A stretch of 64,000 bases of DNA from Chloroflexota bacterium (GTDB lineage Bacteria > Chloroflexota > UBA11872 > VXOZ01), in the NCBI GenBank assembly GCA_963663275.1, contig OY760183.1:2944001-3008000 (forward strand). The letters are read 5' to 3'. The notes beneath the pieces are model-generated. The model was not told the DNA's origin, did no database searches, and was given only the letters and a program-made list of their open reading frames with translations. A program made the translations under genes and the position numbers. Shown here one piece after another: positions 3,234 through 64,000 of this stretch; positions within the stretch are counted from its first letter, which is position 1, and each line of letters starts with the position of its first letter.

Positions 3234-4136
3234 TTAGGCAGTAAACTCCAGCCGCGTCCCCGCGCCGCCGTTCTCGCTGGAGCGGTACGCCGCCTCGATG
3301 AACGAGATGATCTCGATCGTCTCCTCGATCGCCAGCGGCGGGGCGCCGGTATCCAGCATGGTCATGATCTCGCGCAGCAGGTTGCGGTAGTTGTTGCTCG
3401 CATCGATCGACTGGGTGTAGGTGGCCTTTTGCGAGAAGGCCGTCAAGCCGTAGCCCGCGCTGCCGTCGCGAATGGCGCGCACCGTGCCCAGGCGGCCGCC
3501 GTCCCAAAGCCCGGTCACGTGATCTGCGCCGTCGGTGCGCACGGCCCAGACCTCCTGGCAGCCGGGGCCCATCAGCGAGTAGAGCACTTCCACGCCGTGG
3601 ATGCCGTAGTTGAGCAGTCCGGGATTGGCGTAGTGCTCGGAGCCGGGGCTATGCGCGTACGCGCCCAGCGCGCCGCCGTCCGCCGCCAATGATTCCTGCA
3701 CTTCCATCACCGTCTCCGTATAGCGCAATGAGGAAGCGGAGAAGATCGGCACGCCGTGGTGCGCCGCCGCCTCGGCAATAGCGCGCGCCTGGGCGGTGGT
3801 GGCGGCGTAGGGCTTGTCGATGAAGAGCGGCAGCCCGGCTTCCAGGAAGGGCTTGGCGTGGTCCAGGTGCAGGTTGCCCTCGTTGGACTCGATGAAGACG
3901 GCGTCCACGTGGCCGATCATGTCAACCGGCTTGTCCACGATCTGCACGCCCATTTCCTTCAGTTCTTCCGTAAAGCCCGGAATCCGCTCCGGGGAGACAC
4001 GCGATTCCCCCGGATAGCCCATGACGACCGTGCCGCCGTCCACCCATTGCTCTTCCGCGATGTCCAGGTGATTGAGCCGCTTCGTGAACTGCACCACGTG
4101 CGACGTATCGAAATCCACCAAGCCAATCCTGCGCAT
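3234..4136 (-). CDS. Gfo/Idh/MocA family oxidoreductase
   Basis: [31 protein letters not shown] motifs. Confidence 0.88.
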
Positions 4137-4378
4137 TTTCTTCTCTTACCTCTCCAATGACTACGCGACCGCTATTCCGCGCTACTCACGCAAGCGGGGC
4201 GCCGTGTTCCCACACCCAAACCCGCCCTTGCGCGTGCGCCGTGTCAAGTATAGCCGATGTACTGCGCGCCTTCTAGTAATGGCGTCTGTGCTACCATGCA
4301 CGTGAAACGCGAAGAGTGTGCGCCCAAAGCCACAGCGCGCCCAATTCTGCCGCAATCAAGCAACGCGGGGAGGCTCCC

Positions 4379-5221
4379 ATGAACCAGGACGACCTACGCC
4401 GCCGGTTCGATGAACACGGCTACGTCAAGCTCGTTGACTTCCTCGACGCGGACGTGGTGGCGCACGCCCGCGCCGCTATGGAAGAGTTGGTGGACCGGCA
4501 AGCCCAGCGCCTGGTAGCAGCCGGCACAATCGCGACCGCGATGGTTGAAGAACCGTTCGAGACGCGCTTCTTCCGGCTCTACGAGCATCATCTGGACGAC
4601 GCGCCCAAGTCGTTTCGCCGGGAGTTGCACCTGGCCGGCCTCTTCGACCTCTTCTTCAACCCGGCCCTGCTCGACGTGGTCGAAGCCCTGATCGGACCGG
4701 AGATACTCCTCTACCCGAATTACACCGCCCGCCCGAAATTGCCCGAATGGAAAGGCACCGAGGTTCTCTGGCATCAGGACGGCGGTTACACGGAACAAGT
4801 GGCCGGGGACAAAGGGAGCGTGGAGTTGCAGCGCATGGTCAACGTGTGGACGCCCTTGGTCCCGGCCCGCGCGCGGAACGGCTGCATGCAGTTCGTGCCC
4901 GGCACCCACAAACTCGGTACCGTGCCCCACGAGCAGCGTGAATACTACCTTGAGATAGCGCGGGAATCCCTGGATCCATACGTGAAGGCGGCCGTGGACG
5001 TGGAACTCGATCCCGGGGACGTCGTCCTCTTCCAGAATCTCCTCTTCCACCGGGGGCAGCCGAATCACAGCCGCGAGATTCGCTGGAGTTTTGACTGGCG
5101 CTATCAGGACTTGCGCCAGCCCACGTTGCGCAAGGAAGAAGGGCACGTCGCCCGCAGCCGCAGCCGTCCTGAGCGCGCGGTCGCGAGCGCGGCGGCGTGG
5201 GCAAACCTGACGTTTCGCTAG
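4379..5221 (+). CDS. Phytanoyl-CoA dioxygenase (PhyH) family 2OG-Fe(II) dioxygenase
   Basis: WHQD, VNVWTPL, NGCMQFVPGTH, LFHRG motifs; GGGGAGG RBS before ATG 4379. Confidence 0.9.
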   Translation: MNQDDLRRRFDEHGYVKLVDFLDADVVAHARAAMEELVDRQAQRLVAAGTIATAMVEEPFETRFFRLYEHHLDDAPKSFRRELHLAGLFDLFFNPALLDVVEALIGPEILLYPNYTARPKLPEWKGTEVLWHQDGGYTEQVAGDKGSVELQRMVNVWTPLVPARARNGCMQFVPGTHKLGTVPHEQREYYLEIARESLDPYVKAAVDVELDPGDVVLFQNLLFHRGQPNHSREIRWSFDWRYQDLRQPTLRKEEGHVARSRSRPERAVASAAAWANLTFR

Positions 5222-6014: not shown

Positions 6015-6092
6015 GCGCCCTTCTCTTGCCGAACTATCCTCATACAGCTCAGTCATGATGAATAGCGCGCTGCAATGGCGCAACCGCCTTCC

Positions 6093-6420
6093 GGTAGCGG
6101 CCATCCTCTGGTAGCAGCCATCCTCTGGTAGCGGCCGTCCTCTGGTAGCGCAGGTTTGTAACCTGCGTCCCCGGTTGCGCGGACTCACCCTCACCCTAAC
6201 CCTCTCCCTCAAGGGAGAGGGGACTCTTCACTTCCCCGCCAACCGCCTTCCCGTCGCAGCCACCCTCTGGTAGCGCAGGTTTGCAACCTGCGTCCCCGGT
6301 TGCGCGGACTCACCCTCACCCTAACCCTCTCCCTCAAGGGAGAGGGGACTCTTCACTCCCCCGCCAGCCGCCTTCCCGTCGCAGCCACCCTCCGGTAGCG
6401 CAGGTTTGCAACCTGCGTCC
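6093..6420. repeat. Three 17-bp tandem repeats followed by 125-bp tandem units (REP-B + family D hairpin)
   Basis: GGTAGCRGCCRTCCTCT x3 at 6093-6143; GGTAGCGCAGGTTTGYAACCTGCG at 6144, 6269 and 6394 (period 125). Confidence 0.9.
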
Positions 6421-6573
6421 CCCGCCAGCCGCTTTCCCATCCCTTGCCGCCACTTCGACGCCGTGCCCCACAACTCCCCCGGTAGTAGCGGGCAGATACC
6501 CAATGGTATAATGGGAGAGCAATGAACAATTCGTGGCAAACGCGGCGGCTGAAGATGCAGGAAAGAGGGGTCC

Positions 6574-9725: not shown

Positions 9726-11057
9726 ATGTTTGAAACCCTTTCCGATAGCCTGCAAGGCGTCTTCCAGAAACTGCGCGGACGCGGCAAGCTGAGCGAAGCC
9801 GACGTGAACGCCGCTCTGCGCGAAGTGCGCCTGGCGCTGCTCGAGGCGGACGTCAATTTCAAGGTTGCGCGCGATTTTCTCAAGTCGTTGCGTGCGCGGG
9901 CGGTGGGCGCCGAGGTGCTGGAGAGCCTGACGCCGGGGCAGCAGGTCATCAAGATCGTGCACGAAGAGCTAATCGGCCTGCTCGGCGAGCCGGCGCCGCT
10001 CACGCTCACCGGTTCTCCGCCGCACGTCATCATGCTGGTCGGCCTGCAAGGGTCCGGCAAGACCACCGCCGCGGGCAAACTGGCGCTCGCCTTACGCAAG
10101 CAGGGCCAACGCTGTCTCCTGGTGGCGGCGGACGTCTATCGCCCCGCCGCCATCGAACAGCTTCAGACCATCGGCAATCAGATCGACGTGCCCGTGCACG
10201 CCATGGGCACGGCGCAGCCGCCTACCGCAATCGCCCGGGCGGCCGTGGAACGGGCGCGCCAGGAGCGCCTGAGCACCGTCATCGTGGATACCGCCGGGCG
10301 CTTGCAGATCGACGCGGAGATGATGGCCGAGATCGACGAAATCGCCGCAACCGTCTCACCCCAGGAAGTGCTGCTGGTGGCGGACGCCATGACCGGCCAG
10401 GAAGCCGTCAACGTGGCGCAGGCGTTCCACGAGCAGGTACCGCTCACGGGGCTGATCCTCACTAAGACCGACGGCGACGCCCGCGGCGGCGCGGCGCTCT
10501 CCGTGCGCAGCGTGACCGGCATACCGATCAGGTTCCTGGGCAGCGGCGAGAAGATCGAGCCGCTGGACCCGTTCTATCCGGACCGCCTGGCCTCGCGCAT
10601 TCTCGGCATGGGCGACGTGCTGAGCCTCATCGAAAAAGCGGAAGAGACCATCGACGCCGACCAAGCCGCCGTCATCGAGAAGAAACTGCGCACCGCCAGC
10701 TTTACGTTGGAGGATTTCGTCGAACAGTTGCAGCAAATCAAGAAGATGGGCTCGCTGAGCCAGATCATGGAAATGGTGCCCGGCGTCAGTCAGTTCATGC
10801 GCAATCCCGCCATGGCCGCGGCGCTGGACGAGCGCCAGTTCGCGCGCGTGGAGGCGATGATCTACTCGATGACCCCGGCCGAACGGCGCAACCCGTCCAT
10901 CATCGACGGCTCGCGGCGGCGGCGCATCGCGGCCGGCAGCGGCACAACCCCCGCCGAGGTCAACCAACTGCTCAAGAACTTCCGCCAGATGCAATCCATG
11001 ATGAAGTCGTTCGCCTCCGGCAAGTTGCCCAGCAATCTCACGCGCCTCTTTGGGTAG
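9726..11057 (+). CDS. ffh: Signal recognition particle protein Ffh
   Basis: MFETLSDSL, GLQGSGKTT, DTAGR, DGDARGGAALS, Met-rich C-terminal M domain (SRRRRIAAGSG). Confidence 0.97.
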   Translation: MFETLSDSLQGVFQKLRGRGKLSEADVNAALREVRLALLEADVNFKVARDFLKSLRARAVGAEVLESLTPGQQVIKIVHEELIGLLGEPAPLTLTGSPPHVIMLVGLQGSGKTTAAGKLALALRKQGQRCLLVAADVYRPAAIEQLQTIGNQIDVPVHAMGTAQPPTAIARAAVERARQERLSTVIVDTAGRLQIDAEMMAEIDEIAATVSPQEVLLVADAMTGQEAVNVAQAFHEQVPLTGLILTKTDGDARGGAALSVRSVTGIPIRFLGSGEKIEPLDPFYPDRLASRILGMGDVLSLIEKAEETIDADQAAVIEKKLRTASFTLEDFVEQLQQIKKMGSLSQIMEMVPGVSQFMRNPAMAAALDERQFARVEAMIYSMTPAERRNPSIIDGSRRRRIAAGSGTTPAEVNQLLKNFRQMQSMMKSFASGKLPSNLTRLFG

Positions 11058-13310: not shown

Positions 13311-13632
13311 GCGCAGGTTACAAACCTGCGCTACCAAGGCACTGGCGCCATCCCCGTAGCGCGGGGGCTTGTCCCCAATACTGTCGCATTAACGTAGCGC
13401 GGGGGCTTGTCCCCCGCCGGAATAAGAGAAATGCTAACGGAATGGATTGACCCTACGGAAGTCGCAGGTTACAAACCTGTGCTACCGGAGAAACAAGCGT
13501 AGTTTTCACTCTCATTGCGTTTAATGCGACAACATTGGGGCTTGTCCCCCGCTCCCAAACAGGCGCAGGTTGCAAACCTGCGCTACCAAGACACTGGCGC
13601 CATCCCCGTAGCGCGGGGGCTTGTCCCCCGCC
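13311..13632. repeat. BIME-like cluster of REP-B (reverse) and REP-A pairs, interrupted by MITE-4
   Basis: CGCAGGTTRCAAACCTGCGCTACCAAG.CACTGGCGCCATCCCCGTAGCGCGGGGGCTTGTCCCC occurs twice. Confidence 0.88.
13376..13537 (+). mobile_element. MITE-4 (162 bp, IS4-like ends) inserted into REP-A
   Basis: TIRs CAATACTGTCGCATTAA / TTAATGCGACAACATTG; 11-bp direct repeat GGGCTTGTCCC at 13365-13375 and 13538-13548. Confidence 0.85.
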
Positions 13633-13670
13633 TCTTGCCGCGAAACCCACACACCTCGCAGGCCGGGCGC

Positions 13671-15342: not shown

Positions 15343-15482
15343 GATACCTTTGCATAACTCTGTCATTCCGGCGAAAGCCGGAATCCAGACCCCATTTACA
15401 ACTAAGAATAGCCTGTTTTCAAGCCTTTACACCCCCATCCCAACCTTCCCCCTCGATGGGGAAGGGGCTATGCAAAGGTCTC
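15343..15482. mobile_element. MITE-1 (140 bp), empty allele without inner element
   Basis: TIRs GATACCTTTGCATAAC / GCTATGCAAAGGTCTC; 5-bp TSD CTTCG at 15338-15342 and 15483-15487; contains GTCATTCCGGCGAAAGCCGGAATCCAG and CCTTCCCCCTCGATGGGGAAGG hairpins. Confidence 0.88.
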
Positions 15483-19877: not shown

Positions 19878-20087
19878 TCCCTCATCCGAACCTTCCCCTT
19901 CAGTGGGCTGACAGGGTCTTGTACTCTACAATCGACTTCACGTGTCATTCCGAGCGGAGCGAGGAATCTAGTAGCGGTGATCCTGCAGGGCCATGTCTTA
20001 GATTCCTCTCTCCGCTGCGCTCCGTTCGGAATGACACATACATACGCCTGCCAGTCTCTAATGGAGAGGGGGTATTGCAAAGGCCTC
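19878..20087. mobile_element. Degenerate MITE-1 right part containing MITE-2 (19905-20057)
   Basis: GGGCTGACAGG...CCTGCCAGTCT inside the CCTTCCCC...GGAGAGGGG hairpin, ending GTATTGCAAAGGCCTC. Confidence 0.75.
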
Positions 20088-34787: not shown

Positions 34788-35332
34788 GAGAATTGTGCAT
34801 AACCCCTTTCCCCACTGAGGAGGGCCGACAGGAGTATGTAAATGTCATTCCGAGCGGAGCGAGGAATCTAGAAGTGCTGGATTTGCGAGTCAACGCTCTA
34901 GATTCCTCACTTCGCTGTGCTCCGTTCGGAATGACAAGTGAAATCGACTTTGGAGCAAATGCACCTGTCAGCCCTCGATGGGGAAGGGGTCTTGCAAGGG
35001 TCTCTTTAATGAGCTGATCGAGGTATGAATTCTGTGGTCAGCTTCACGTGTCATTCCGAGCGGAGCGCAGCGGAGAGAGGAATCTAGAGTGGTGAGCCTG
35101 ACAAACTCCGCGCAGCATGGATTCTAGATTCCTCGCTCCGCTCGGAATGACATTTATGTACCCCTGTCAGCCCAGTGAGGGGAAAGGTTGGGATGGGGGC
35201 GAAGAGGATTGAAGTCTGGCTGATTCTAGTTGTACATGCGGTCTGGATTCCGGCTTTCGCCGGAATGACGGAAGTTTGCAGCCGGAATGATGCGCGCATG
35301 CAGCCGGAATGACGGCGTTATGTAAAACCCTC
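34788..35332. mobile_element. Composite of MITE-1/MITE-2 copies
   Basis: MITE-1-like ends at 34788 (GAGAATTGTGCATAAC), 35004 (TTGCAAGGGTCTC) and 35332 (GTTATGTAAAACCCTC); MITE-2 at 34822-34974 and a 5'-truncated copy ending ~35173. Confidence 0.82.
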
Positions 35333-38460: not shown

Positions 38461-38596
38461 GTAATTCCTCCTGTATGCTGCACGCGGTTCATTCCGCCTC
38501 TGATTCGAGCGTAACGGAGGAATGTAAAGGAATTGCGAACAGGAAACGGAAACCCAAGGAAAGGGAGTCTAAGCGCCAGGCGCGCTTCCCGCCCAC

Positions 38597-39054
38597 GTAG
38601 CCCTGGGGCTTGTCCCCCGCAGCCCGACCGCTATCCGCAACCTTCTGGCCCCACCACCGTAGCGCGGGGGCTTGTCTCCCGCTTCCCGACCGCTATCCGC
38701 ATCCATCTGGCCCCGCTACCGTAGCGCGGGGGCTCGTCCCCCGCTTCCTGACCGCTATCCGCGACTATCTGGCCCCTCCACAGTAGCCCGGGGGCTTGTC
38801 CCCCGCTTCCTGACCCCTATCCGCGACTATCTGGCCCCTCCACAGTAGCCCGGGGGCTTGTCCCCCGCTTCCTGACCCCTATCCGCGACTATCTGGCCCC
38901 ACCACCGTAGCCCGGGGGCTTGTCCCCCGCTTCCTGACCTCTATCCGCAACCATCTGGCCCCACCACCGTAGCCCGGGGGCTTGTCCCCCGCTTCCTGAC
39001 CGCTATCCGCAACCATCTGGCCCCACCACCGTAGCCCGGGGGCTTGTCCCCCGC
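38597..39054 (+). repeat. Tandem array of 8 REP-A units, 62-bp period
   Basis: GTAG starts at 38597, 38659, 38721, 38783, 38845, 38907, 38969 and 39031; linkers near-identical. Confidence 0.93.
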
Positions 39055-39112
39055 AGCCCAGCCGTAAACGGCAAACATCATGCCGCCCCACCACTGCGCG
39101 GAGGCTCGTCCC

Positions 39113-39299
39113 CAATGCTGTCGCACTTACCTTCCCGGTCAGGAGCATGGCGTTTCCAGTGAACCGCGTCTCCGGTAGCGCAGGTTCGCGCGGGAAGTGC
39201 GCATAACCTGCGTCTTCTGTAGGGTCAATCCATTCCGTAAGCACTTCTCTTGTTCCGGCGGGGGACAAGCCCCCGCGCTACGTTAACGCGACAGCATTG
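39113..39299 (-). mobile_element. MITE-4 variant with inverted REP-A flanks
   Basis: Ends CAATGCTGTCGCACTTA / TTAACGCGACAGCATTG; internal REP-B and REP-A. Confidence 0.8.
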
Positions 39300-39412: not shown

Positions 39413-39446
39413 AAAGAGCCCTTCCTCCGTAGAGGAAGGGCTCTTT
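39413..39446. terminator. Bidirectional rho-independent terminator downstream of the RND gene
   Basis: AAAGAGCCCTTCCTC-CGTA-GAGGAAGGGCTCTTT. Confidence 0.75.
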
Positions 39447-43942: not shown

Positions 43943-43994
43943 CCGGGGCTCGAGTCAGGCTCACCCGCCGCCAAGCGCCTGATCCCGTTGCCCC

Positions 43995-44142
43995 GTAGCG
44001 CGGGGGCTCGTCTCCCGCCTCACGACCAACATCCCGTAGCGCGGGGGCTCGTCCCCCACCTCCGGCTCAACCAACCGTAGCGCGGGGGCTTGTCCCCCGC
44101 CTCCGGCCCAACCAACTGTATGCGCGGGGGCTTGTCCCCCGC
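43995..44142 (+). repeat. Four REP-A units, 41-bp period
   Basis: Units start at 43995, 44036, 44077 and 44118. Confidence 0.9.
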
Positions 44143-44282
44143 CTCCGGCGCGATGAACACCCGTCATCTCCGGCCAGGCGCTCAACACGTATCCCGTTCC
44201 CCGTGCGCGCCTCCAACTGGCGCGTTGAACGAACCGAAATCTTCGCGGTGTCATCATCCAACCAAAACGAAGGAGAAACCCT

Positions 44283-47598: not shown

Positions 47599-49569
47599 GT
47601 GAACACGCGGTTCATCAACACGCTGCTAAGGCAACTCCGGGTGTTAAGGCAACTCCCGGACACCCTCTTTTCCCTCTCCCGCTGGATAAATATCCATAAT
47701 CAACTCCGGGATTCCTCTTCTCCCCTCTCCCGCTGGGAGAGGGCTAGGGTGAGGGTCCGCAAGCATCTCCGGGACGTCCGCTCAACGGTTGTGCTCCTCG
47801 TGCGGGGACTCGCCCTGGGCCTCGCGCCCGCGCCGGGCGCGGCGGCGGCCCACGTTGCGCTGGCAGTGGTAGCCGCGGCCCTACCCGTGGCGCAGGTCTG
47901 GCTCGGCAAAGTGCTATTGGACCAGCTCTCGCTGGCAGTAAGCGGCGCCGTCATTGCGCTCTCAGCCATTCTGCTCACCGCCGCGCTCTATGCGCTGACG
48001 CTGGGCGCGCAAGCGGCCCTGGAACCCGTGCAGGAGACGCTCACCGCGTGGCTGGAAGACCGGGCCGTGGGGGAATTCGACCGCCGGGTCATGGCGGCCG
48101 GCGGCCGCTTAGTAGATCTCTATCAGGTTGAGCGCCCGTCCTTCCAGGACGATCTTGCCGTTGTCCAGTTCGGCAGTTTCACCGTGCCGCGGCTGGTCAC
48201 GTTCCTGCAGAGCGGCCTGCCTCCCGCCCTGACGTTGGTTGGACTGCTCGTCCTGCTCGCGCGCCTGCATCCACTCATCCCGCTCTTCCTGATGCTCGCC
48301 ACCGTGCCCTACCTCATCAGCGAACGCCGGATGGCAAAGAACCGTCACGAAGCCATTGCAAAGCAGTCCCGCGCCGCCCGGGAAATGGAATACTATACCC
48401 AGGTGACTACCGAACCCCAATCCGCCAAGGAGGTGCGCGTCTTCGGCCTGGGCGGGTTCTTCCTGCGCCGCTTCGAGCAGCGGCGCGCGCAGGCCCTCCG
48501 GGAACTTGACCGGGTGCGGCTCACCCACTTGCGCAACAACGGGTTCTTTGGCGCGCTCTACGCCGTGACCTTGGGCGGGGGATTCTGGTACGTGGCGGCC
48601 CAGGCCGGCGCCGGCCAACTGACGGTGGGCGACGTTGCCCTCTACCTGGGCGCCATCGCCCAAACCCAAGGGGCGCTCCGCTTCACAGGCATCTGGGCCG
48701 GCATGCTCTACGAAATCACCCTACGGCTCGACACCGTCTTTCGCTTCCTCGACCACAGCCGGCCGGAAATTGCCTTGCCCCAACCCAACGACGCGCGCGA
48801 CGCGCCTGGCCTGCTTCAAGAAGGCATCGCGCTGCGGAACGTCGCCTTCCACTACCCGGAGAGCGACGCAAACGTGCTACGCGAGATCAACGCCACGCTC
48901 CCCGCCGGCAAGGTTACGGCGCTGGTGGGCGTCAACGGGGCCGGCAAGAGCACCCTCGTCAAGCTCATCACCCGCATGTACGACCCCACAGAGGGGGACG
49001 TTCTGCTGGACGGCATGCCCCTGCGCGCCTACGACCTGGAGAGCCTGCGGCGGCGCATCGCCGTGGTCTACCAGGACTTTGCCCAGTTTGCGTTGAGCCT
49101 GGGCGAGAACATCACCGTAGGCGCGGGCGGGCTGGACGCGAGCGACGCGCGTATGAGGCAAGCGGCGGCGTGGGCCGGAGCGGACCAGGTTGCCGCGAAC
49201 CTGGCGCGCGGCTACGATACGCAGCTTACGCGGCGGTTCTCCGGCGGCACTGAGCTTTCCGGCGGCGAGTGGCAGAAGGTGGCGCTGGCGCGCGGCTTCA
49301 TGCGCGACGCCGCTTTCGTCATTCTGGATGAACCCACCGCCGCGCTGGACGCCGAGGCCGAATACCATCTCTTCCAACGCTTCCGCGAGTTGGCGGCCGG
49401 CAAGACCGCCCTTATCATCTCCCACCGCTTCTCAACCGTGCGCATGGCGGACAATATCCTCGTCCTGGAGGATGGCGCGATCTTGGAGAACGGTTCCCAC
49501 GCGGACCTCATGGCCGCCAACGGCCGCTACGCCACGCTCTACGCGATGCAGGCAAGCTGGTATCGCTAA
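47599..49569 (+). CDS. ABC exporter, fused permease/ATPase (probable heterodimer partner)
   Basis: GVNGAGKS, LSGGEWQK, LDEPT, ISHRFSTV; N-terminus contains a family D repeat; start uncertain. Confidence 0.9.
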   Translation: MNTRFINTLLRQLRVLRQLPDTLFSLSRWINIHNQLRDSSSPLSRWERARVRVRKHLRDVRSTVVLLVRGLALGLAPAPGAAAAHVALAVVAAALPVAQVWLGKVLLDQLSLAVSGAVIALSAILLTAALYALTLGAQAALEPVQETLTAWLEDRAVGEFDRRVMAAGGRLVDLYQVERPSFQDDLAVVQFGSFTVPRLVTFLQSGLPPALTLVGLLVLLARLHPLIPLFLMLATVPYLISERRMAKNRHEAIAKQSRAAREMEYYTQVTTEPQSAKEVRVFGLGGFFLRRFEQRRAQALRELDRVRLTHLRNNGFFGALYAVTLGGGFWYVAAQAGAGQLTVGDVALYLGAIAQTQGALRFTGIWAGMLYEITLRLDTVFRFLDHSRPEIALPQPNDARDAPGLLQEGIALRNVAFHYPESDANVLREINATLPAGKVTALVGVNGAGKSTLVKLITRMYDPTEGDVLLDGMPLRAYDLESLRRRIAVVYQDFAQFALSLGENITVGAGGLDASDARMRQAAAWAGADQVAANLARGYDTQLTRRFSGGTELSGGEWQKVALARGFMRDAAFVILDEPTAALDAEAEYHLFQRFRELAAGKTALIISHRFSTVRMADNILVLEDGAILENGSHADLMAANGRYATLYAMQASWYR

Positions 49570-49676: not shown

Positions 49677-49918
49677 GCGGGGGACAAGCCCCAAGGGTAT
49701 CGCGTAAACGTAGCGCGGGGGCTTGTCCCCCGCCAGAGCAAGAACACTAGCTCCACAAAGGTTTGATCGAACAAAGACGCAGGTTTAATCCACTCCGTTA
49801 GCGCTTCTCTTGTTCCGGCGGGGGACAAGCCCCCGCGCTACATTAACACGACTGCATTGGGGACTTCCCACCGCGCTATGTTAACGCGGCAACGTTGGGG
49901 ACTTCCCACCGCGCTACG
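49677..49918. repeat. REP-A cluster with MITE-4 end fragments
   Basis: REP-A at 49709 (+) and ~49818 (-); TTAACACGACTGCATTG and TTAACGCGGCAACGTTG end-like motifs. Confidence 0.8.
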
Positions 49919-53837: not shown

Positions 53838-54095
53838 GTAGCGCGGGGGATCGTCCCCCGCCTAACTCTTCCCGTAGCGCGGGGGCTTGTCCCCCGCCAG
53901 CGCAACACACGCAGGTTACAAACCTACGCTACCAGACTACTGCACCCGCAACGCGGGAGGCTCGTCCCCCGCCTAATCTCTTCCCGTAGCGCGGGGGCTT
54001 GTCCCCCGCCTGTTCAACACGCGCAGGTTACAAACCTACGCTACCGGACTACGGACGCCGTAGCGTGGGGGCTTGTCCCCAATGCTGTCGCGTAA
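53838..54095. repeat. BIME-like REP-A/REP-B cluster ending in a MITE-4 end
   Basis: Five to six REP-A, two REP-B, then CAATGCTGTCGCGTAAA. Confidence 0.85.
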
Positions 54096-54115
54096 AGCTA
54101 ATGAGCACTGTACTA

Positions 54116-54240
54116 CCCGTTCGTGCTGAGCCTGTCGAAGCATGAACGGCTATTCGCCACCTTTCGGCGGTTCCGTTCACCCTTCGACGCGGCTCAGGGC
54201 GAACGTTCCTCGTGCAGACAAAACGATCGTAAACAGGTTC
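54116..54240 (-). mobile_element. Partial MITE-3 copy
   Basis: Reverse-complement match to the left part of 17539-17731, ending CGATCGTAAACAGGTTC. Confidence 0.75.
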
Positions 54241-56022: not shown

Positions 56023-56140
56023 CCTCGCTCAATCTGCGAAAACATCAGTCGCTATGGAAGCCGCATGTACTCCCTCTCACGTGAGAGTAGCACATTTCCC
56101 CGTAACCACCGCTTCTACCCAAGCGGGGAATGATGTCCGC

Positions 56141-56308
56141 GTAGCGCGGGGGCTTGTCCCCCGCCAGCGCAACACGCGCAGGTTGCAAACCTACGCTACC
56201 GCAATTCTACAGCCGTAGCGCGGGGGCTTGTCCCCCGCCAGCGCAACACGCGCAGGTTGCAAACCTACGCTACCGCAATTCTACAGCCGTAGCGCGGGGG
56301 CTTGTCCC
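56141..56308. repeat. 74-bp tandem BIME-like units (REP-A + inverted REP-B)
   Basis: GTAG starts at 56141, 56215 and 56289. Confidence 0.9.
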
Positions 56309-56484
56309 TAATGTCGTCGCATTAAACGCAATGAGAATGAAAACTACGCTCGTCTTTCCGGTAGCGCAGGTTCGCACGGGAGGTGCGCGTAACCTGCGTC
56401 TTCCGTACGGTCAGTCCATGCCATTCTCACTTTTCCTGTTCCGGCGGGGGACAAGCCCCCGCGCTACGTTAAGCGACAGCAATG
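56309..56484 (-). mobile_element. MITE-4 (176 bp) inserted into REP-A, opposite orientation to the 13376 copy
   Basis: Ends TAATGTCGTCGCATTAA / TTAAGCGACAGCAATG; GGGCTTGTCCC on both sides. Confidence 0.85.
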
Positions 56485-56705
56485 GGGCTTGTCCCCCGCC
56501 GGAGCCGTTTCTACCCAGGCGAGGATTGCTGTATTCCTATCGCACGTCAAGCACTTGACAATTGCGCCGAATTTCAGAGTGCTGCTATAGTATGCCCTAA
56601 GCGGCTTGATGGAACGAAAGGAGGCGGAAAACAGCGTAGTATCAGCCGCGCAAGGCCCGGTTACTTTTCCATGATTCGGTCACTTCCTCTTGAAGGAGGG
56701 AAACC

Positions 56706-58192: not shown

Positions 58193-59134
58193 ATGATGAA
58201 TATGGCTCGCTTGGCGAAAGTCGCCGTCTGTTCCACGCCGAATACGGTCCTGGGCGAGAGTGACGAAGAACGGCACGAGTTTAATCTACGCAAAGCTGAG
58301 GAATTGCTCCACGAGGCCGCGGCGCAAGGCGCGGACATTGCCTGTTTGCCGGAGGCGTTTCCCGTGCGCGGCATCAACACCGGCGGTACCGACGACCGCT
58401 GGTACGAACCCGTGCCCGGCGGTGAGACCTACCAGCGCATGGCGGCGGTCGCCCGGCAGCGCGGCATGTACGTTGTCGCGCCGATACTGGGCGTGGAGGA
58501 CGGCTTGCGCCGCAACGTGGCGCTGGTCATCGACCGCAACGGCGACTACGTCGGCGGCTACCACAAAGTCCACCTCACCGTCACTGAAGTTGAAGCGTGG
58601 GGCATCACCGCCGGTGACTCCTGGCCGGTTTTCGACCTCGATTTCGGCAAGATCGGCATCACCATCTGCTACGACGTGTTCTTCCCGGAGGGCTTCCGCA
58701 TCCTCGCCCTCAAAGGCGCCGACGTCATCTTCCATCCCACCATGTACAGCATGTACGGCGAGGTGGGCTGGGAGGCGGTGATCCAGTCCCGCGCCATCGA
58801 TAACTGCGTCTACGTCTGTCCGGTGAACTACGGCTTCACGGACCACGAACCCTGGATGCCGGGCATGTGCCTCAATCGCAGCAGCGTGATCGGGCCGGAC
58901 GGTATCGCTGTGGCCGACCGGGGCCGCTACTGGGGCGTGGCCGTGGCCGCGCTCGACCTGGACCGCCCGCGCATGGTCTACCGGGGCGGGTCAACCGGTC
59001 TCGCGAGCTTCCGTGAAGACGCCTGGAACCACCGCCGCCCGGATACCTACCGGGAACTCCTGGACTACGGGCATTGGGCCGACAATCCGAGCCAAACGCC
59101 GGCCGAGCGGTCTCCTGAGGAGACCTTTGCATAA
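58193..59134 (+). CDS. Carbon-nitrogen hydrolase (nitrilase superfamily)
   Basis: CLPE, YHKVH, ICYD catalytic E-K-C triad. Confidence 0.92.
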   Translation: MMNMARLAKVAVCSTPNTVLGESDEERHEFNLRKAEELLHEAAAQGADIACLPEAFPVRGINTGGTDDRWYEPVPGGETYQRMAAVARQRGMYVVAPILGVEDGLRRNVALVIDRNGDYVGGYHKVHLTVTEVEAWGITAGDSWPVFDLDFGKIGITICYDVFFPEGFRILALKGADVIFHPTMYSMYGEVGWEAVIQSRAIDNCVYVCPVNYGFTDHEPWMPGMCLNRSSVIGPDGIAVADRGRYWGVAVAALDLDRPRMVYRGGSTGLASFREDAWNHRRPDTYRELLDYGHWADNPSQTPAERSPEETFA

Positions 59135-59144
59135 CCCCTTCCCC
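59120..59144. mobile_element. Solo MITE-1 terminus
   Basis: GAGACCTTTGCATAACCCCTTCCCC, identical to 60757-60781. Confidence 0.8.
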
Positions 59145-59253
59145 TCCGTTGCGGTTTCCGCCCGAAAGAGAAATTCATTAATGCAACGGCAGACGCGCCC
59201 ATGCGTAGACGCATCGGCATCGAGGCAAAGGGTACAGCGAGGTGTCCGGCATC

Positions 59254-60756
59254 ATGAAGGTTGCTTGTGTGCTCATAACCCACCTGCGCGCCAAGTGCGA
59301 GTTGCGGCGGCAGCCCGCGTTGGCGGCGGCGCCGGCCGTCGTCGTCGACCGTTCGGACGGGGTTCCCCGGGTGGTTGACGTCTTGCCGGCCGCCGCCGGC
59401 GTAACGGCGGGCATGGCGTTGGCGGAAGCCCTTTCCCACAATCCCGACACCGTCGTCATCGAAGCCAACGAACCGGCGTACCGGCGGGTCTTCCGGCAGG
59501 CGCTGACCGCTCTGCAAGCGGTCAGCGACCGGGTGGAGCAGGCGGCGCTGGGCGTGGCGTACGCGCGTCTGGACGGGCTGGAGACTCTCTACGGCGGCGA
59601 AGAAAGGCTCGTTGCCGCCCTGCTGCGGGCCGTGCCCGCAGACCTCGCGCCGCGCGTGGGCGTGGCGGACGCCAAATTCCCCGCGCTGGTCGCGGCCCAA
59701 GCCGGCCGGGCGGGTGAAGTAACGCGGGTACCGGAGTATGCCGCCGCGTTCTTAGCGCCGCATCCGGTCACGCTGCTGCCGCTCCCGCCCGCGGCGCACG
59801 CCAGCCTGCAACGCTTCGGCTTGCGCACCTTGGGCGACGTGGCGGCCATGCGCGTCGACCAGCTCAGCGGCCAGTTCGGCGCCGACGGTACCCGGGCGTG
59901 GCAGCTTTGCCACGGCATCGACGACGAGCCGTTCATCCCTCTGAAACACGAGGAGTCCGTCACCGCGCGCGTTACGCTGCCGTTTGTCTCCTCCTCCCTG
60001 GAACTCTTGCTGGCGACGCTGGACGGCCTGCTGGAGAGCGCCTACGCCCGGCCGCGGATGCGGGGGCGTTGCGCTGGGCAGGTCACCATAGCGTGCGGCC
60101 TCTTCCGGGCGCCTGCGACGCAGTCGCAGCCGTCATGGGAGAGGGTAATCCACTTCAAGCATAGCGTCGGCCGCGAGGATGCGGCGCGCATTGTCAGAAG
60201 CCGTCTGGAGGCTGACTATCCACCCGCGCCCATCGAGGAAATAACGCTTACCCTGGCTAATCTGACCGGCGAGTCCGCCATACAACCGGGGCTGCTCCGT
60301 GATGCCCGCAAGGACAGAAGCGAGCGCCTGGTGGAGGCGGACCGGCAACTCCAAGCCCGCATGAAAGGCAAGCGCGCCCTCTTTCGCCTGGTGCACGTCG
60401 CGCCCTGGCACCCCGCGCCGGAGTTGCGCACGCTGCAAACGCCGCTCGATCCGGCGGTGAAAGACGGCAGCGTGTGCATCGAAGCGCCCGAAAAGCCGCT
60501 GGCGGCGCCTACGGCGGTGGAAGTGCGCACCGGCGCGGACAACCGGCCCGTGGCGGTGAGCTGCGCGCGCGCGGGGGCGCGCGAAAAGAACCGCTGGCGC
60601 CGGGTAGCCCGCATCGACGATCAGTGGTGCTTCGATCTCTGGTGGCTGGCCGCGCCGCTGACGCGCACCTACTACCGCATACGGCGGGCGGATGGGGTGC
60701 CGCTCACCCTGTTCCACGACCACAGGAACGGCGGTTGGTTCCGGCAAGCCGCGTAG
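59254..60756 (+). CDS. imuB: ImuB-like inactive Y-family polymerase
   Basis: GVTAGMALAEA, RVGVADAKFPA, FGLRTLGDVA; catalytic DE absent; C-terminal WW...RTYYR domain; upstream of dnaE2. Confidence 0.8.
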   Translation: MKVACVLITHLRAKCELRRQPALAAAPAVVVDRSDGVPRVVDVLPAAAGVTAGMALAEALSHNPDTVVIEANEPAYRRVFRQALTALQAVSDRVEQAALGVAYARLDGLETLYGGEERLVAALLRAVPADLAPRVGVADAKFPALVAAQAGRAGEVTRVPEYAAAFLAPHPVTLLPLPPAAHASLQRFGLRTLGDVAAMRVDQLSGQFGADGTRAWQLCHGIDDEPFIPLKHEESVTARVTLPFVSSSLELLLATLDGLLESAYARPRMRGRCAGQVTIACGLFRAPATQSQPSWERVIHFKHSVGREDAARIVRSRLEADYPPAPIEEITLTLANLTGESAIQPGLLRDARKDRSERLVEADRQLQARMKGKRALFRLVHVAPWHPAPELRTLQTPLDPAVKDGSVCIEAPEKPLAAPTAVEVRTGADNRPVAVSCARAGAREKNRWRRVARIDDQWCFDLWWLAAPLTRTYYRIRRADGVPLTLFHDHRNGGWFRQAA

Positions 60757-61072
60757 GAGACCTTTGCATAACCCCTTCCCCATCGAGGGCTGACAGGGGT
60801 AGGCATTCTACATCCGACTTCACGTGTCATTCCGAGCGGAGCGCAGCGGAGAGAGGAATCTAAGGCTTTCGCTGCAAAAACGTCGGTTCTAGATTCCTCG
60901 CTCCGCTCGGAATGACACTTGCCTACCCCTGTCAGCCCATCGAGGGGGAAGGTTGGGATGGGGGTGAAATGGCTTGACATCATGCCAAAGCTAGTTGTAA
61001 GAACACTCTGGATTCTGCGCTCCCGCACGGGAGCGGGCTTCCGCCGGAATGACGGAGTTACGTAAAGTTCTC
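60757..61072. mobile_element. MITE-1 (316 bp) with nested MITE-2
   Basis: TIRs GAGACCTTTGCATAAC / GTTACGTAAAGTTCTC; TSD CGTAG at 60752-60756 and 61073-61077. Confidence 0.9.
60787..60938. mobile_element. MITE-2 (152 bp)
   Basis: Perfect 19-bp TIR GGGCTGACAGGGGTAGGCA; TSD ATCGA at 60782-60786 and 60939-60943; internal GTCATTCCGAGCGG...GGAATCT inverted pair. Confidence 0.9.
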
Positions 61073-61085
61073 CGTAGGAACAGCC

Positions 61086-64000
61086 ATGTCTTCGCCAAAG
61101 CCGCCGTCCGCCGGTTATGTCGAGTTGCACGCCAAGAGTTTCTATTCCTTCGGCGTCGGCGCCTCCCACACGCACGAGTTGCTCGCCCAGGCCAAGGCGT
61201 TCGGGTACGGCGCGCTTGCCTTGACCGACACCAACCTCTGCGGGGCGCTGGAGTTCGCGCGCCTCGCCAACAGCCTGGAGATCCGGCCCATCACGGGTGG
61301 GGAACTGACCCTGCCGGACGGCGCGCGCATCGTCCTGCTGGCCAAGACGCGCGCGGGCTATGCCAACCTGTCGCGGCTGTTCACGCTGGCGAACGCCGTC
61401 GATCGCCGGGAGCCGCGGCTCGATCCGGCGCATCTGCCCCAACACGCCGCGGGCCTGATCCTGCTCACCGGCGGGCGCGGCGGGCCGCTGGCAAAACTGA
61501 TCGAGGCCGGACGCCACCAAACGGCGCTGGCGTTGTTAGAAGACTACGTGGAATGGTATGGCCGCGGCGCGGTGTACGTGGAGTTGCAGCAGAACTTTCT
61601 GCGCGGCGACACCAAGCGCAACAGCGAACTGGCGCGGCTTGCCGATGAGGCCGGCGTGCCCGTGGCGGCGACCAACGACGCGCTCTATCACGCGCCGGAG
61701 CGCTACCGGCTGCAGCACGCGCTGGAAGCCGCCAAGCGCAACCTCACCATCGACCAGGCGCTGCCCCACCTCAAACCCAACCATCACCTTCACCTGAAAC
61801 CCCACGCCGAGATGGAGCGAATCTTCGCGGGCTTGCCGGACGCCATCGGCAATACCGTCCGCATCGCGGAGCAGTGCGCCTTCGATCTCAGCGCCGACCT
61901 TGGCTACACCCTGCCCGATCCCGCCGTGCCGGAGGGCTTCACCCTGACACAGCACCTGCGCGCGCTCTGCGAGGCGGCGGCGGCGCGGCGCTACGGCGCG
62001 CTGACGGCACAAGTGCGGGCGCGCTTGGATGAGGAGTTCGACCTGATCGAGCGGCACAATCTGGCGGGCTTCCTGTTGCTGTACCGCGAGATTGTGGACA
62101 TCGCGCGGCAGATCATGGTGGAGCGCGGCCTGGTTGACCCCGAAACACCGCTGGAGGAGCGGCCGCCGGGGCGCGGGCGCGGCTCATCCGTGGCGCTTCT
62201 CGCCGGTTATCTCATCGGCATCAGCCACGTCGATCCGCTCAAGTGGAACCTCACCCTGGAGCGTTTCATCTCCGCCGACATGACCATGCTGCCCGACATC
62301 GACCTGGACTTCCCGCGCGAACTCAGAGACGCGCTGCTGGAGCGGGTGCACCGGCACTTTGGGCCGGAATACGCCGTGCTGGCCAGCGCCATCGCCACCT
62401 ATTCGGTCAAGGGCATCATCCAGGACCTGGGGAAAGCCCTGGGACTGCCCAAGGCAGACCTGTCGCTCCTTTCCAAGCAACTCCACTCGCACCAGGCCGG
62501 CAATCTCAAGGAAGAGATGCTGGCGCTGCCGGCTTTTCGGGAGAAAGTCACCGCCGCGGGCTGGCGCGACCTCATCGCGCTCGGCCCCGCGCTGATGGAC
62601 GCGCCCAAGGGCATCGGCCAGCACGTCGGCGGCATGATCCTGAGCGACACGCCTATTTCGGCGCTGGTACCCATCCGCGCCGGCGCCATGGAAGGCCGCT
62701 TCATCATGGACTGGAACAAGGACTCCGTGGCGGACGCCAACTTCGCCAAGATCGACCTCCTTTCCTTGCCCGTGCTCGACCAGATCGAAGAGGCGCTGAA
62801 CCTGATTGAAGCAAGCACCGGCGCGCGCCCGGACCTGAGCCGTATCGATCCCGAAGACCCCCAGGTGTACGGCATGATCAACGCGGGACGCTCCGTCGGC
62901 ATCTTCCTGCTCCAGTCGCCGGCGCAACTCAAGATGGGGCAGCGCCTGCGCTCTCAGAATCTGCTCGACCTGGCCTATCAGGTGGCGCTCATCCGTCCCG
63001 GCGTCGGCGTGCAGGGGAGCGCGGTCTCGCAGTTCGTGGAGCGGTACCGGCACGGCGTCGCCTGGGACTACGACCATCCCTTAGAAAAGCGCGCGCTGGA
63101 GCGGGGCTACGGCATCATCGTGTGGCAGGAGCAGGTGGTGCAACTCATCATGGACGTGGCCGGCATGACGGCGGCGCAAGCCGACGAGGTGCGGCGGGCC
63201 TTCACCAAGCCCAATAACGCCCACCTCATCGCCATGCACTGGCAACAATTTTTAAAAGGCTCTCAAAGTAGAGGAGTCTCTGAAGCAATTGCGCAGAAGA
63301 TCTTCGCCAAGATCAACGGCCACTACATGTTTCCGGAGAGCCACAGCCATGCGTTCGCCATCACCGCCTACCAGGCCGCCTGGCTGAAGCGCTACTATCC
63401 GCTGGAATTCTTCATCGGCCTGATGAACAACCAGCCCATGGGCTTCTATCCCCTGGAAACGCTCAAGCAGGATGCGCAGAGCTTTGGCGTGCCCTTTCTG
63501 AATCCGTGCGTGAACCGCAGCCAGGCGCGCTGCGTCCCCGCCGAGGGCGCGGTGCTGCTGGGTCTGCGGTTCGTCAAGGACGTAGGGGAAGAGGCGGCGC
63601 AGCGCATCGTCGCCGAACGGGAGAGCGGCGGCCCCTACACAGGAGCGGGCGACTTCGTGCGGCGGACGGGCGTAAAGCCCCAGGCGGTGCAATCGCTGGC
63701 GCTGGCGGGCGCGTTCGACATGATTACTGCGCTTTCAGTGAAAACGGCGCTTTCAGCGAAAACGGCGCCTCCGGCGAAAGCGCCGGCCGCAACCGTAGAT
63801 TATGCAACCGCAGGGCGCCGGAACCGGCGCGAGACGCTCTGGGCCGCCGGCCTTGCCATTCGTCCCGGCAAGCACGGGCAGCGCGCCTTTGCCATGGCGG
63901 CGCCGGACAGCGTGCCCCGCTTGGCGGACTTCAACGACTTCGAGCGCATGGTGGGCGAGTATGCCGTCATGGGCATCTACCCCAAGGGCCACCTGATGGA
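61086..64000 (+). CDS. dnaE2: Error-prone DNA polymerase III alpha DnaE2 (runs off window end)
   Basis: Manual translation (missing from the ORF track because there is no stop in the window): YVELHAKSFYSF, ALTD, GRGRGSS, PDIDLDF, GQHVGG, KIDLL, FPESHSHAF, NNQPMGFY. Confidence 0.9.
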   Translation, partial: MSSPKPPSAGYVELHAKSFYSFGVGASHTHELLAQAKAFGYGALALTDTNLCGALEFARLANSLEIRPITGGELTLPDGARIVLLAKTRAGYANLSRLFTLANAVDRREPRLDPAHLPQHAAGLILLTGGRGGPLAKLIEAGRHQTALALLEDYVEWYGRGAVYVELQQNFLRGDTKRNSELARLADEAGVPVAATNDALYHAPERYRLQHALEAAKRNLTIDQALPHLKPNHHLHLKPHAEMERIFAGLPDAIGNTVRIAEQCAFDLSADLGYTLPDPAVPEGFTLTQHLRALCEAAAARRYGALTAQVRARLDEEFDLIERHNLAGFLLLYREIVDIARQIMVERGLVDPETPLEERPPGRGRGSSVALLAGYLIGISHVDPLKWNLTLERFISADMTMLPDIDLDFPRELRDALLERVHRHFGPEYAVLASAIATYSVKGIIQDLGKALGLPKADLSLLSKQLHSHQAGNLKEEMLALPAFREKVTAAGWRDLIALGPALMDAPKGIGQHVGGMILSDTPISALVPIRAGAMEGRFIMDWNKDSVADANFAKIDLLSLPVLDQIEEALNLIEASTGARPDLSRIDPEDPQVYGMINAGRSVGIFLLQSPAQLKMGQRLRSQNLLDLAYQVALIRPGVGVQGSAVSQFVERYRHGVAWDYDHPLEKRALERGYGIIVWQEQVVQLIMDVAGMTAAQADEVRRAFTKPNNAHLIAMHWQQFLKGSQSRGVSEAIAQKIFAKINGHYMFPESHSHAFAITAYQAAWLKRYYPLEFFIGLMNNQPMGFYPLETLKQDAQSFGVPFLNPCVNRSQARCVPAEGAVLLGLRFVKDVGEEAAQRIVAERESGGPYTGAGDFVRRTGVKPQAVQSLALAGAFDMITALSVKTALSAKTAPPAKAPAATVDYATAGRRNRRETLWAAGLAIRPGKHGQRAFAMAAPDSVPRLADFNDFERMVGEYAVMGIYPKGHLM

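Follow-up and report, generated by a model that had tools for sequence, protein, structure and literature searches.

Between an imuB-like and a dnaE2-like gene of this Chloroflexota genome, one short non-coding repeat (MITE-2) sits in the hairpin of another (MITE-1), and the window, by which we mean the whole stretch of 64,000 nucleotides that was analysed, holds the uninterrupted hairpin as well. A sequence-only reading had proposed that MITE-2 inserts site-specifically into MITE-1 and is carried by it as a hitch-hiker. The question is what MITE-2 recognises and which transposase moves it. We consider it probable that a ~1.33-kb IS4-family insertion sequence (IS) of Dehalococcoidia/Chloroflexota gave rise to MITE-2 as a non-autonomous derivative, and that the target of MITE-2 is the hairpin, which several host MITEs carry. 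We base this proposal on sequence: the shared 16-bp CTGAC ends, an ORF with DDE and YREK motifs, an 11-bp duplication centred on the palindrome axis, insertion in either orientation and the many different loops.

The nested locus and its boundaries

The nesting first read at 60757 was confirmed: the hairpin of MITE-1 copy A is intact, that of copy B is filled and, once the insert is taken out, 116 of 140 aligned bases are identical. The coordinates of both copies and their 5-bp duplications (CTTCG and CGTAG) stood, and the 16-bp TIRs proved imperfect (14/16 and 13/16). The three other MITE-2 copies, placed at 19905, 34822 and ~35173, do all adjoin a hairpin arm, but none has an intact duplication; within the window it is thus found in one of four copies and is absent at 19908, 34825 and 35015, and similarity is no more than 76-82% for most copy pairs. 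The copy at 19905, said to lie opposite to MITE-1, is ambiguous because its terminal spacer indicates the opposite orientation to the 60757 copy (alignment score 61) and its inner REP pair the same one (129). Junctions between hairpin and TIR occur five times in the window, as compared to none in 100 shuffles. Beyond what had been noticed before, we found a lone MITE-1 end at 59120-59144, CGTC-type REPs in both MITEs, and four free-standing hairpins among the five empty target hairpins of the window (Table 1).

Table 1. Coordinates of the repeats and flanking genes in the window
Feature	Position	Strand	Remarks
MITE-1 copy B, filled allele	60757..61072	+	IS5/IS1106-type GAGACC ends; TIR 13/16
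Left 5-bp TSD of MITE-1 copy B	60752..60756	+	CGTAG; the imuB-like gene ends on its TAG
Right 5-bp TSD of MITE-1 copy B	61073..61077	+	CGTAG; 8 bp 5' of the dnaE2-like start codon
Left 11-bp TSD of MITE-2 copy B	60779..60789	+	CCCATCGAGGG; centre of the target hairpin
MITE-2 copy B	60790..60935	.	146 bp; perfect 16-bp TIR CTGACAGGGGTAGGCA, equal to the IS4 element end in L008
Interior of MITE-2 copy B	60826..60916	.	CGTC-like REP units as an inverted pair
Right 11-bp TSD of MITE-2 copy B	60936..60946	+	
CGTC-type REP in MITE-1 copy B	61007..61053	-	19-bp insertion relative to other copies
MITE-1 copy A, empty allele	15343..15482	-	140 bp; TSD CTTCG on both sides; TIR 14/16
Target hairpin inside MITE-1 copy A	15444..15465	.	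intact
CGTC-1-type REP inside MITE-1 copy A	15362..15388	+	dRS3-like
Degenerate nested copy C	19879..20087	-	MITE-1 left end 20072-20087; MITE-2 19908-20054; MITE-1 right half absent, duplication decayed, orientation ambiguous
Rearranged MITE-1/MITE-2 cluster	34788..35332	.	no intact duplications; MITE-1 left ends 34788-34803 (+) and 34989-35004 (-); MITE-2 D 34825-34971 (-); MITE-2 E 35015-35170, left TIR decayed; MITE-1 right half to 35332
Lone MITE-1 left end with one hairpin arm	59120..59144	+	
Free-standing target-family hairpins	6201..6220 and 6326..6345	.	empty
Free-standing hairpin, target-family variant	39420..39439	.	empty
Free-standing target-family hairpin	47724..47742	.	empty
imuB-like Y-family polymerase homologue	59242..60756	+	upstream of copy B; DNA polymerase IV models, below cutoff
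dnaE2-like error-prone polymerase	61086..64000	+	downstream of copy B; runs past the window end

The boundaries of MITE-2, first read as 152 bp with a 19-bp TIR and a 5-bp duplication, had to be redrawn. When the target is a palindrome, the same site can be read with a duplication of 5, 7, 9 or 11 bp. We place the element at 60790-60935, between 11-bp duplicates and with a perfect TIR of 16 bp, because its plasmid relatives show 11 bp at non-palindromic sites; three G/C pairs earlier counted as TIR are therefore part of the duplicated target CCC-N5-GGG, and the former reading was rejected. Exact 11-bp duplications at non-palindromic sites, together with CT ends, were present in five of the eight plasmid loci fetched (two from Nostoc, two from Methylomagnum and one from Stanieria), while one of the other three had no duplication, one no left end that could be found, and the most distant one an 8-bp duplication. 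Among the Chloroflexota loci listed, the duplications of 47 end pairs match at 11/11 positions in 25, at 10/11 in 7 and at 9/11 or fewer in 15, six of the 11 positions being preset by the search pattern where both ends were seeded. The four split end pairs in these loci all have exact 11-bp duplications, and in L085 and L093 a departure from CCC is copied on both flanks. MITE-2 is therefore described here as a short, non-coding element of 146 bp with TIRs and an 11-bp duplication, its TIR being identical to the first 16 bases of the autonomous element of L008; what we call CTGACAGGGGTA-type ends are the CTGAC ends of MITE-2 and the IS4 element. More generally, palindromic targets make TIR and duplication calls ambiguous by symmetric steps, and families may therefore be misassigned.

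The inserted composite makes up nearly the entire gap between the two polymerase genes. The upstream one is presumably imuB-like, a name we took from its position before dnaE2, the models having hit it below cutoff. Within 60752-61088, the left MITE-1 duplication contributes the imuB-like stop, and the right one restores an AGGA motif upstream of the dnaE2-like start. As RNA, the composite at 60757-61072 is predicted to fold strongly (-181 kcal/mol, z = -9.8); neither a sigma-70 promoter nor an intrinsic terminator was detected in 60700-61120, and an Rfam search of the window returned no matches. Lying where it does and with such a predicted fold, the composite may affect the expression of the mutagenesis cassette.

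The lone MITE-1 end provides the final four codons and the stop of a nitrilase-family ORF (58193-59134) and is preceded, within 59109-59144, by a six-base inverted copy of the MITE-1 start and a 5-bp spacer. This end and copy B lie in direct orientation on either side of the imuB-like gene, without a matching duplication. Another repeat, a GTAG-type REP family (GTAGCGCGGGGGCTTGTCCCCCGC), is abundant in the window (38526-39145, 13331-13640, 43970-44158, 49677-49912, 53841-54131 and 56139-56499) and includes a tandem array whose period is 62 bp; 6081-6422 and 26522/39365 belong to further GTAG families.

An IS4-family element with the ends of MITE-2

As the sequence-only reading had noted, the window contains no cognate transposase: a tblastn search with the IS4 protein gave a best E value of 0.69, and no transposase family was found among the 15 ORFs profiled with NCBIfam or the 46 profiled with Pfam, out of 183 listed ORFs with 100 aa or more. 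Its suggestion to look elsewhere for long copies enclosing a transposase was fruitful for the MITE-2 ends. A scan of GTDB for the junction gave at least 122 loci, five of them from other taxa and the rest from Dehalococcoidia/Chloroflexota assemblies, the window's own genome not being among the matches listed. A placement of the window in this lineage is suggested by a like MITE nest in CAXXVD and by nucleotide matches of 68-74% to genes of Dehalococcoidia. Five of 107 merged segments (non-Chloroflexota matches, taken as chance) were excluded from the counts of hairpins, ends and MITE-1 ends given below. We found a ~1.33-kb IS4-family element with the MITE-2 TIR in at least 15 copies (11 whole, four as paired end loci) in at least six Dehalococcoidia genomes; in the loci listed it measures 1322-1337 bp and has CTGAC ends. 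Among the matches listed, its copies are inserted in the hairpin in both orientations and with differing duplicated loops, all full-length ones having been found by a pattern that includes the hairpin. Relative to the long arm, 10 of the 15 copies listed point one way and four the other, and one is unclassified. The claim that both orientations occur is thus borne out in other genomes and not cleanly within the window. Likewise, site-specific and repeatedly independent insertion of a non-autonomous MITE-2 largely holds, as seen through the loci of other genomes. Furthermore, a 183-bp internal-deletion derivative in L032 retains both IS ends and therefore provides a link between IS and MITE.

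The transposase is encoded by one ORF of 400-435 aa, without frameshift, in the nine full-length copies translated. Both the DDE triad (D124/D187/E290, with spacers of 62 and 102) and the YREK motif (Y283-R286-E290-K297) are invariant in 14 aligned proteins; one transposase has an 8-residue insertion between the E and the K of YREK. The protein scores above cutoff with Pfam DDE_Tnp_1, and its best NCBIfam model is IS4 NF033591 (E ~1e-26), with scores of 92-95 bits that do not reach the 152-bit cutoff; this model is an annotation aid outside the published definition of the IS4 family. A structure search with the transposase and its profile matched no solved structure. At least 1454 relatives are present in the protein set, and those on plasmids are 31-34% identical.

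The IS4 family, as defined in PMC2266710, has D(60-110)D(100-150)E spacing, a YREK signature of Y-2-R-3-E-6-K and a duplication of 7-13 bp, roughly one turn of the helix. The partner agrees with this definition in its single ORF, DDE spacing, YREK motif and 11-bp duplication. At the level of subgroups, CT ends and a length of 1200-1350 bp agree with IS10, but the 11-bp direct repeat differs from the 9 bp of that subgroup, and a filing under IS10 was rejected for this reason. The CTGACAGGGGTAGGCA ends misfit the IS50/ISPepr1 patterns CW------Y---CA-A--W- / YT-AA-YTT---A, and the repeats are 11 bp as opposed to 7-9 bp. Compared by the descriptions of Table 1 in PMC2266710, the partner does not match any of the seven subgroups in every respect. 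Other candidates suited GGG ends or a 5-bp duplication (IS1016-like, IS701, ISH3 and IS1634) and were ruled out by the CT-ended relatives with 11-bp duplications and by the YREK motif. IS1182 elements duplicate hairpin loops; IS1182 was our first guess and was rejected after the YREK transposase appeared, and a literature search for the hairpin-loop-duplication phrase behind it gave no match.

The target hairpin and its hosts

MITE-1 had been taken for the target of MITE-2. As read from the loci of other genomes, the target is instead a family of REP-like hairpins, mostly free-standing and also found in at least three other MITE families. Its palindrome is CCTTCCCCC-N5-GGGGGAAGG, or the sister CCTCTCCC, and the 11-bp duplication is centred on the axis, a single fixed position that splits the palindrome. 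In 1.23 Mb of loci listed there are 325 empty hairpins, as compared to 12 in one Markov simulation; only three of the 325 have a MITE-1 end within 130 bp, and a MITE-1 end lies outside 11 of 177 TIR ends in these loci. The hairpin family is also present on a Leptolinea plasmid, where an array (L132 750-2470) consists of ~180-bp units, each with a target-type hairpin and a GTAG-type REP pair.

MITE-1 itself has the end motif GAGACCTTTGCATAAC and is a non-coding element of 110-140 bp with two REP-like units inside; its duplications are 5 bp in four copies and 6 bp in three. The likeness of its ends to IS1106 was upheld: GAGACC..TGCA ends and a 5-bp duplication are those of the IS1106 type, and the first 12 bases are identical (12/12) in a Neisseria remnant with a 5-bp duplication, whose position corresponds approximately to that in Table S3 of PMC3454330. 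Full IS5 elements with GAGACC..TGCA ends and 5-bp duplications were found on two Desulfovibrionaceae plasmids. Neither the window nor 1.27 Mb of loci listed contained a cognate IS5 transposase between MITE-1 ends, and a generic TIR and TSD scan of those loci found no GAGACC-ended IS. Looking for long copies was in this case unproductive, the sole long element with MITE-1 ends in the loci listed enclosing the ORF of a nested IS4. Plasmid nucleotide searches with the composite, the empty MITE-1 and the MITE-1 end returned nothing beyond short stretches that were REP-like or matched by chance; a Photobacterium match to the MITE-1 end was rejected as chance, since it falls in a coding region. A frameshifted IS5-family transposase of a Dehalococcoidia genome (L032 4046-5081, minus strand) has ends unlike MITE-1, which resemble another host MITE family, as in L060. 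Also noted was an 893-bp element of L036 (3327-4219), in which a short duplication accompanies a perfect inverted repeat of 20 bp.

MITE-1 is also often found in a hairpin loop, of the sister hairpin in L074 (9900-10198) and L019 (9951-10282) and of a CGTC REP in L028 and L089. Both nest layers may thus favour palindromes, although the intact MITE-1 copies of the window do not clearly do so. L028 and L089, from one genome, each have a copy of a 270-bp MITE-2 relative, and with respect to the same MITE-1 end the two are in opposite orientation. In L006/L105, the host of a full IS is a MITE-1-like element whose 6-bp outer duplication is exact; this chromosome also has two empty 110-bp MITE-1-like versions.

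A first alternative keeps MITE-2 specific for MITE-1 and lets it spread mainly as cargo, the ~300-bp composite moving by means of an IS5 transposase. The nested pair also occurs in CAXXVD, with two MITE-2 copies, and all six copies (four in the window, two in CAXXVD) adjoin a MITE-1 end, as opposed to the four free hairpins of the window, which are empty; this hints that MITE-1 is either preferred or a carrier. Moreover, the outer 5-bp duplications are exact in three intact composites (299-316 bp), five of the six copies share their orientation as judged by the terminal spacer, and six of 45 paired elements elsewhere in the loci listed lie in GAGACC-type hosts. Against carriage, the three intact composites differ in their inner loops (ATCGA, TCGAC and TTGAG, internally matched, the last at 10/11), identity between their MITE-2 interiors reaches only 80-82%, and one filled host resembles the empty copy A more closely (87%) than any of the filled hosts resembles another (72-79%). 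Different inner loops and such interiors therefore fit separate insertions. In addition, not one pair of the loci listed shows a single inner insertion with different outer duplications, and 36 of the 45 paired elements have no enclosing host; the nine hosts comprise the six GAGACC-type ones (four with exact outer duplications, one weak) and three with other end types. We therefore regard spread of MITE-2 mainly as MITE-1 cargo as unlikely, and the hitch-hiking first proposed is not borne out, while later co-transposition by a host IS5 transposase is possible.

A second alternative, which we judge improbable, is that the transposase accepts G/C-rich 11-mers with loose specificity and that the bias towards hairpins comes from purifying selection against insertions elsewhere. 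The targets of the plasmid relatives are indeed varied and partly G-rich: these relatives do not use the target hairpin, and the one in L123 (462-1821), from Nostoc, sits in a short G-rich tandem repeat. Moreover, 542 of 879 CCC-N5-GGG sites in the loci listed already have the arm. Unseeded ends more than 2 kb from a pattern-caught end, a small set with many single-ended half-elements, compared with random rather than intergenic DNA, have a hairpin arm with at most two mismatches in 13 of 17 cases (background 2.2%), and nine of the 12 unseeded clusters match six arm bases outside the duplication (background 5.6%), the other three being without a good arm (all in the loci listed). Selection alone would not set the position within the hairpin, and intergenic DNA is available elsewhere. 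Furthermore, one chromosome holds five IS4 copies in both orientations, and its recent copies, the three whole ones being 93-97% identical, all lie at the palindrome axis, as found with a pattern that requires the hairpin.

A last alternative is that arm and TIR make up one repeat unit which recombination or gene conversion spreads among REP-like hairpins, without targeted transposition. It would account for the many single-ended arm-TIR-spacer-hairpin units, the tandem arrays and the recombined look of copy C and the 34788-35332 cluster, but is very improbable: the outer flanks of the full-length copies are unrelated, their exact duplications comprise at least six different 11-mers and occur with either orientation, and relatives produce 11-bp duplications at unrelated sites.

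According to the reading we prefer, i.e., targeted insertion of an IS4-derived MITE, the IS4 transposase would be supplied in trans and would pair both MITE-2 ends. By analogy with IS10, IS50 and IS231 (PMC2266710), MITE-2 would be excised by cut-and-paste. The transposase would attack the hairpin with an 11-bp stagger, and target recognition would extend past the 11 bases; the variable loop is compatible with both sequence reading and the recognition of an extruded cruciform. The hairpin is an abundant REP-like repeat and MITE-1 one of at least four host MITE families carrying it, so that nests would arise again and again in any host MITE offering it.

Some of these elements carry the target themselves. 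Among 34 short CTGAC elements listed, 13 are tagged with an intact target of their own and 18 with CGTC-type REPs. MITEs of 114-126 bp with CTGAC ends and their own target hairpin inside were noted in L036 (10018-10141), L055, L059, L046, L031, L021, L075 and L041. In one genome, three IS copies have a 78-bp extension that is half of a short CTGAC MITE, with new duplications, which is co-movement driven by the IS4 ends. Single-ended half-elements containing the hairpin account for 40 of 126 ends tested in the loci listed, and such units may spread together with the hairpin. They are numerous in the CAXXGY, CATOSD and OY764155 loci, each with a hairpin arm, one TIR, a short spacer and a whole hairpin, and are sometimes in tandem at 38-68 bp (e.g., L066 near 10001-10084 and L008 near 3860-5200); they are probably products of self-insertion and recombination.

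A broader picture, which we put forward tentatively as a possibility short of an even chance, is a self-feeding network in Russian-doll fashion, with an IS4 lineage strict for one palindrome whose landing pads are multiplied by its own MITEs and by at least four unrelated host MITE families. If true, the element itself and other transposases would multiply the landing pads, keeping insertions off genes; the spread of the hairpin family and of "orphan" CGTC REPs without a dedicated transposase would be explained; and the cyanobacterial and proteobacterial transposase relatives without this specificity would offer a natural pair for finding the determinants of target choice.

Comparison with known systems

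What appears to be new, on comparison of sequences, is an 11-bp-duplicating IS4 lineage outside the described subgroups, whose MITEs nest in several hosts and sometimes carry their own target. Our search of mostly non-subscription literature found nothing on this element, on bacterial MITE-in-MITE hairpin targeting or on MITEs carrying their own target, and the passages available of PMC11602168 do not mention Chloroflex, IS4 or nested. That IS elements target REPs is established as a "type 1 association", and IS1106 is listed as REP-associated (PMC1525189).

The closest known system is ISRm22 of Sinorhizobium meliloti (IS4 family, IS4Sa), a DDE element whose copies are all reported to lie in REPs at the palindrome axis (PMC1525189; PMC2266710); nesting in Russian-doll fashion is unusual. 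ISRm22 differs in its host phylum, in its target repeat and in the CA ends of IS4Sa, as compared to CT here. Its duplication is 6 bp (PMC1525189), with 8-10 bp for the subgroup (PMC2266710), as opposed to 11 bp here, and the passages on it in these two sources describe no MITE derivatives or MITE nesting. The IS10 subgroup shares CT ends, a length of 1200-1350 bp, a complete YREK and a single ORF (PMC2266710, Table 1) and differs in its 9-bp direct repeat, the partner scoring below the NCBIfam cutoff. This DDE lineage would be hairpin-specific in Chloroflexota and loosely specific in its plasmid relatives, a contrast that makes the basis of palindrome targeting testable.

For the outer element, the counterpart is IS1106 (IS5 family, Neisseria), which MITE-1 resembles in its first 12 bases and 5-bp duplication and from which it differs as a non-coding element of 110-140 bp with two REP-like units and 5-6-bp duplications. 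The neisserial mosaics of CGTC REPs/dRS3 have a TGTC tag, an 8-bp stem, a 4-bp loop, a CCA tail and several interleaved repeat families (PMC3733652). By comparison with that description of the CGTC-1 consensus, the unit at 15361-15388 of MITE-1 agrees in its TGTC tag, 8-bp stem starting with AT, 4-bp loop and CCA tail; the units of MITE-2 agree in the tag and the first five stem bases, the rest being without the canonical 8-9-bp stem and 4-5-bp loop. CGTC REPs have been described without a dedicated transposase (PMC3733652); here, by contrast, they lie inside IS4- and IS5-type MITEs with target duplications. Travel as MITE cargo would be a concrete route of spread for REP-like repeats without a known mover, CGTC REPs included. 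Lastly, ISPpu9 and ssr9 of Pseudomonas putida (PMC12288879) likewise combine an IS that targets REPs with a non-autonomous module relying on the transposase of that IS, but they belong to the IS110 family and move through circular intermediates, unlike the DDE element with TIRs and target duplications described here.
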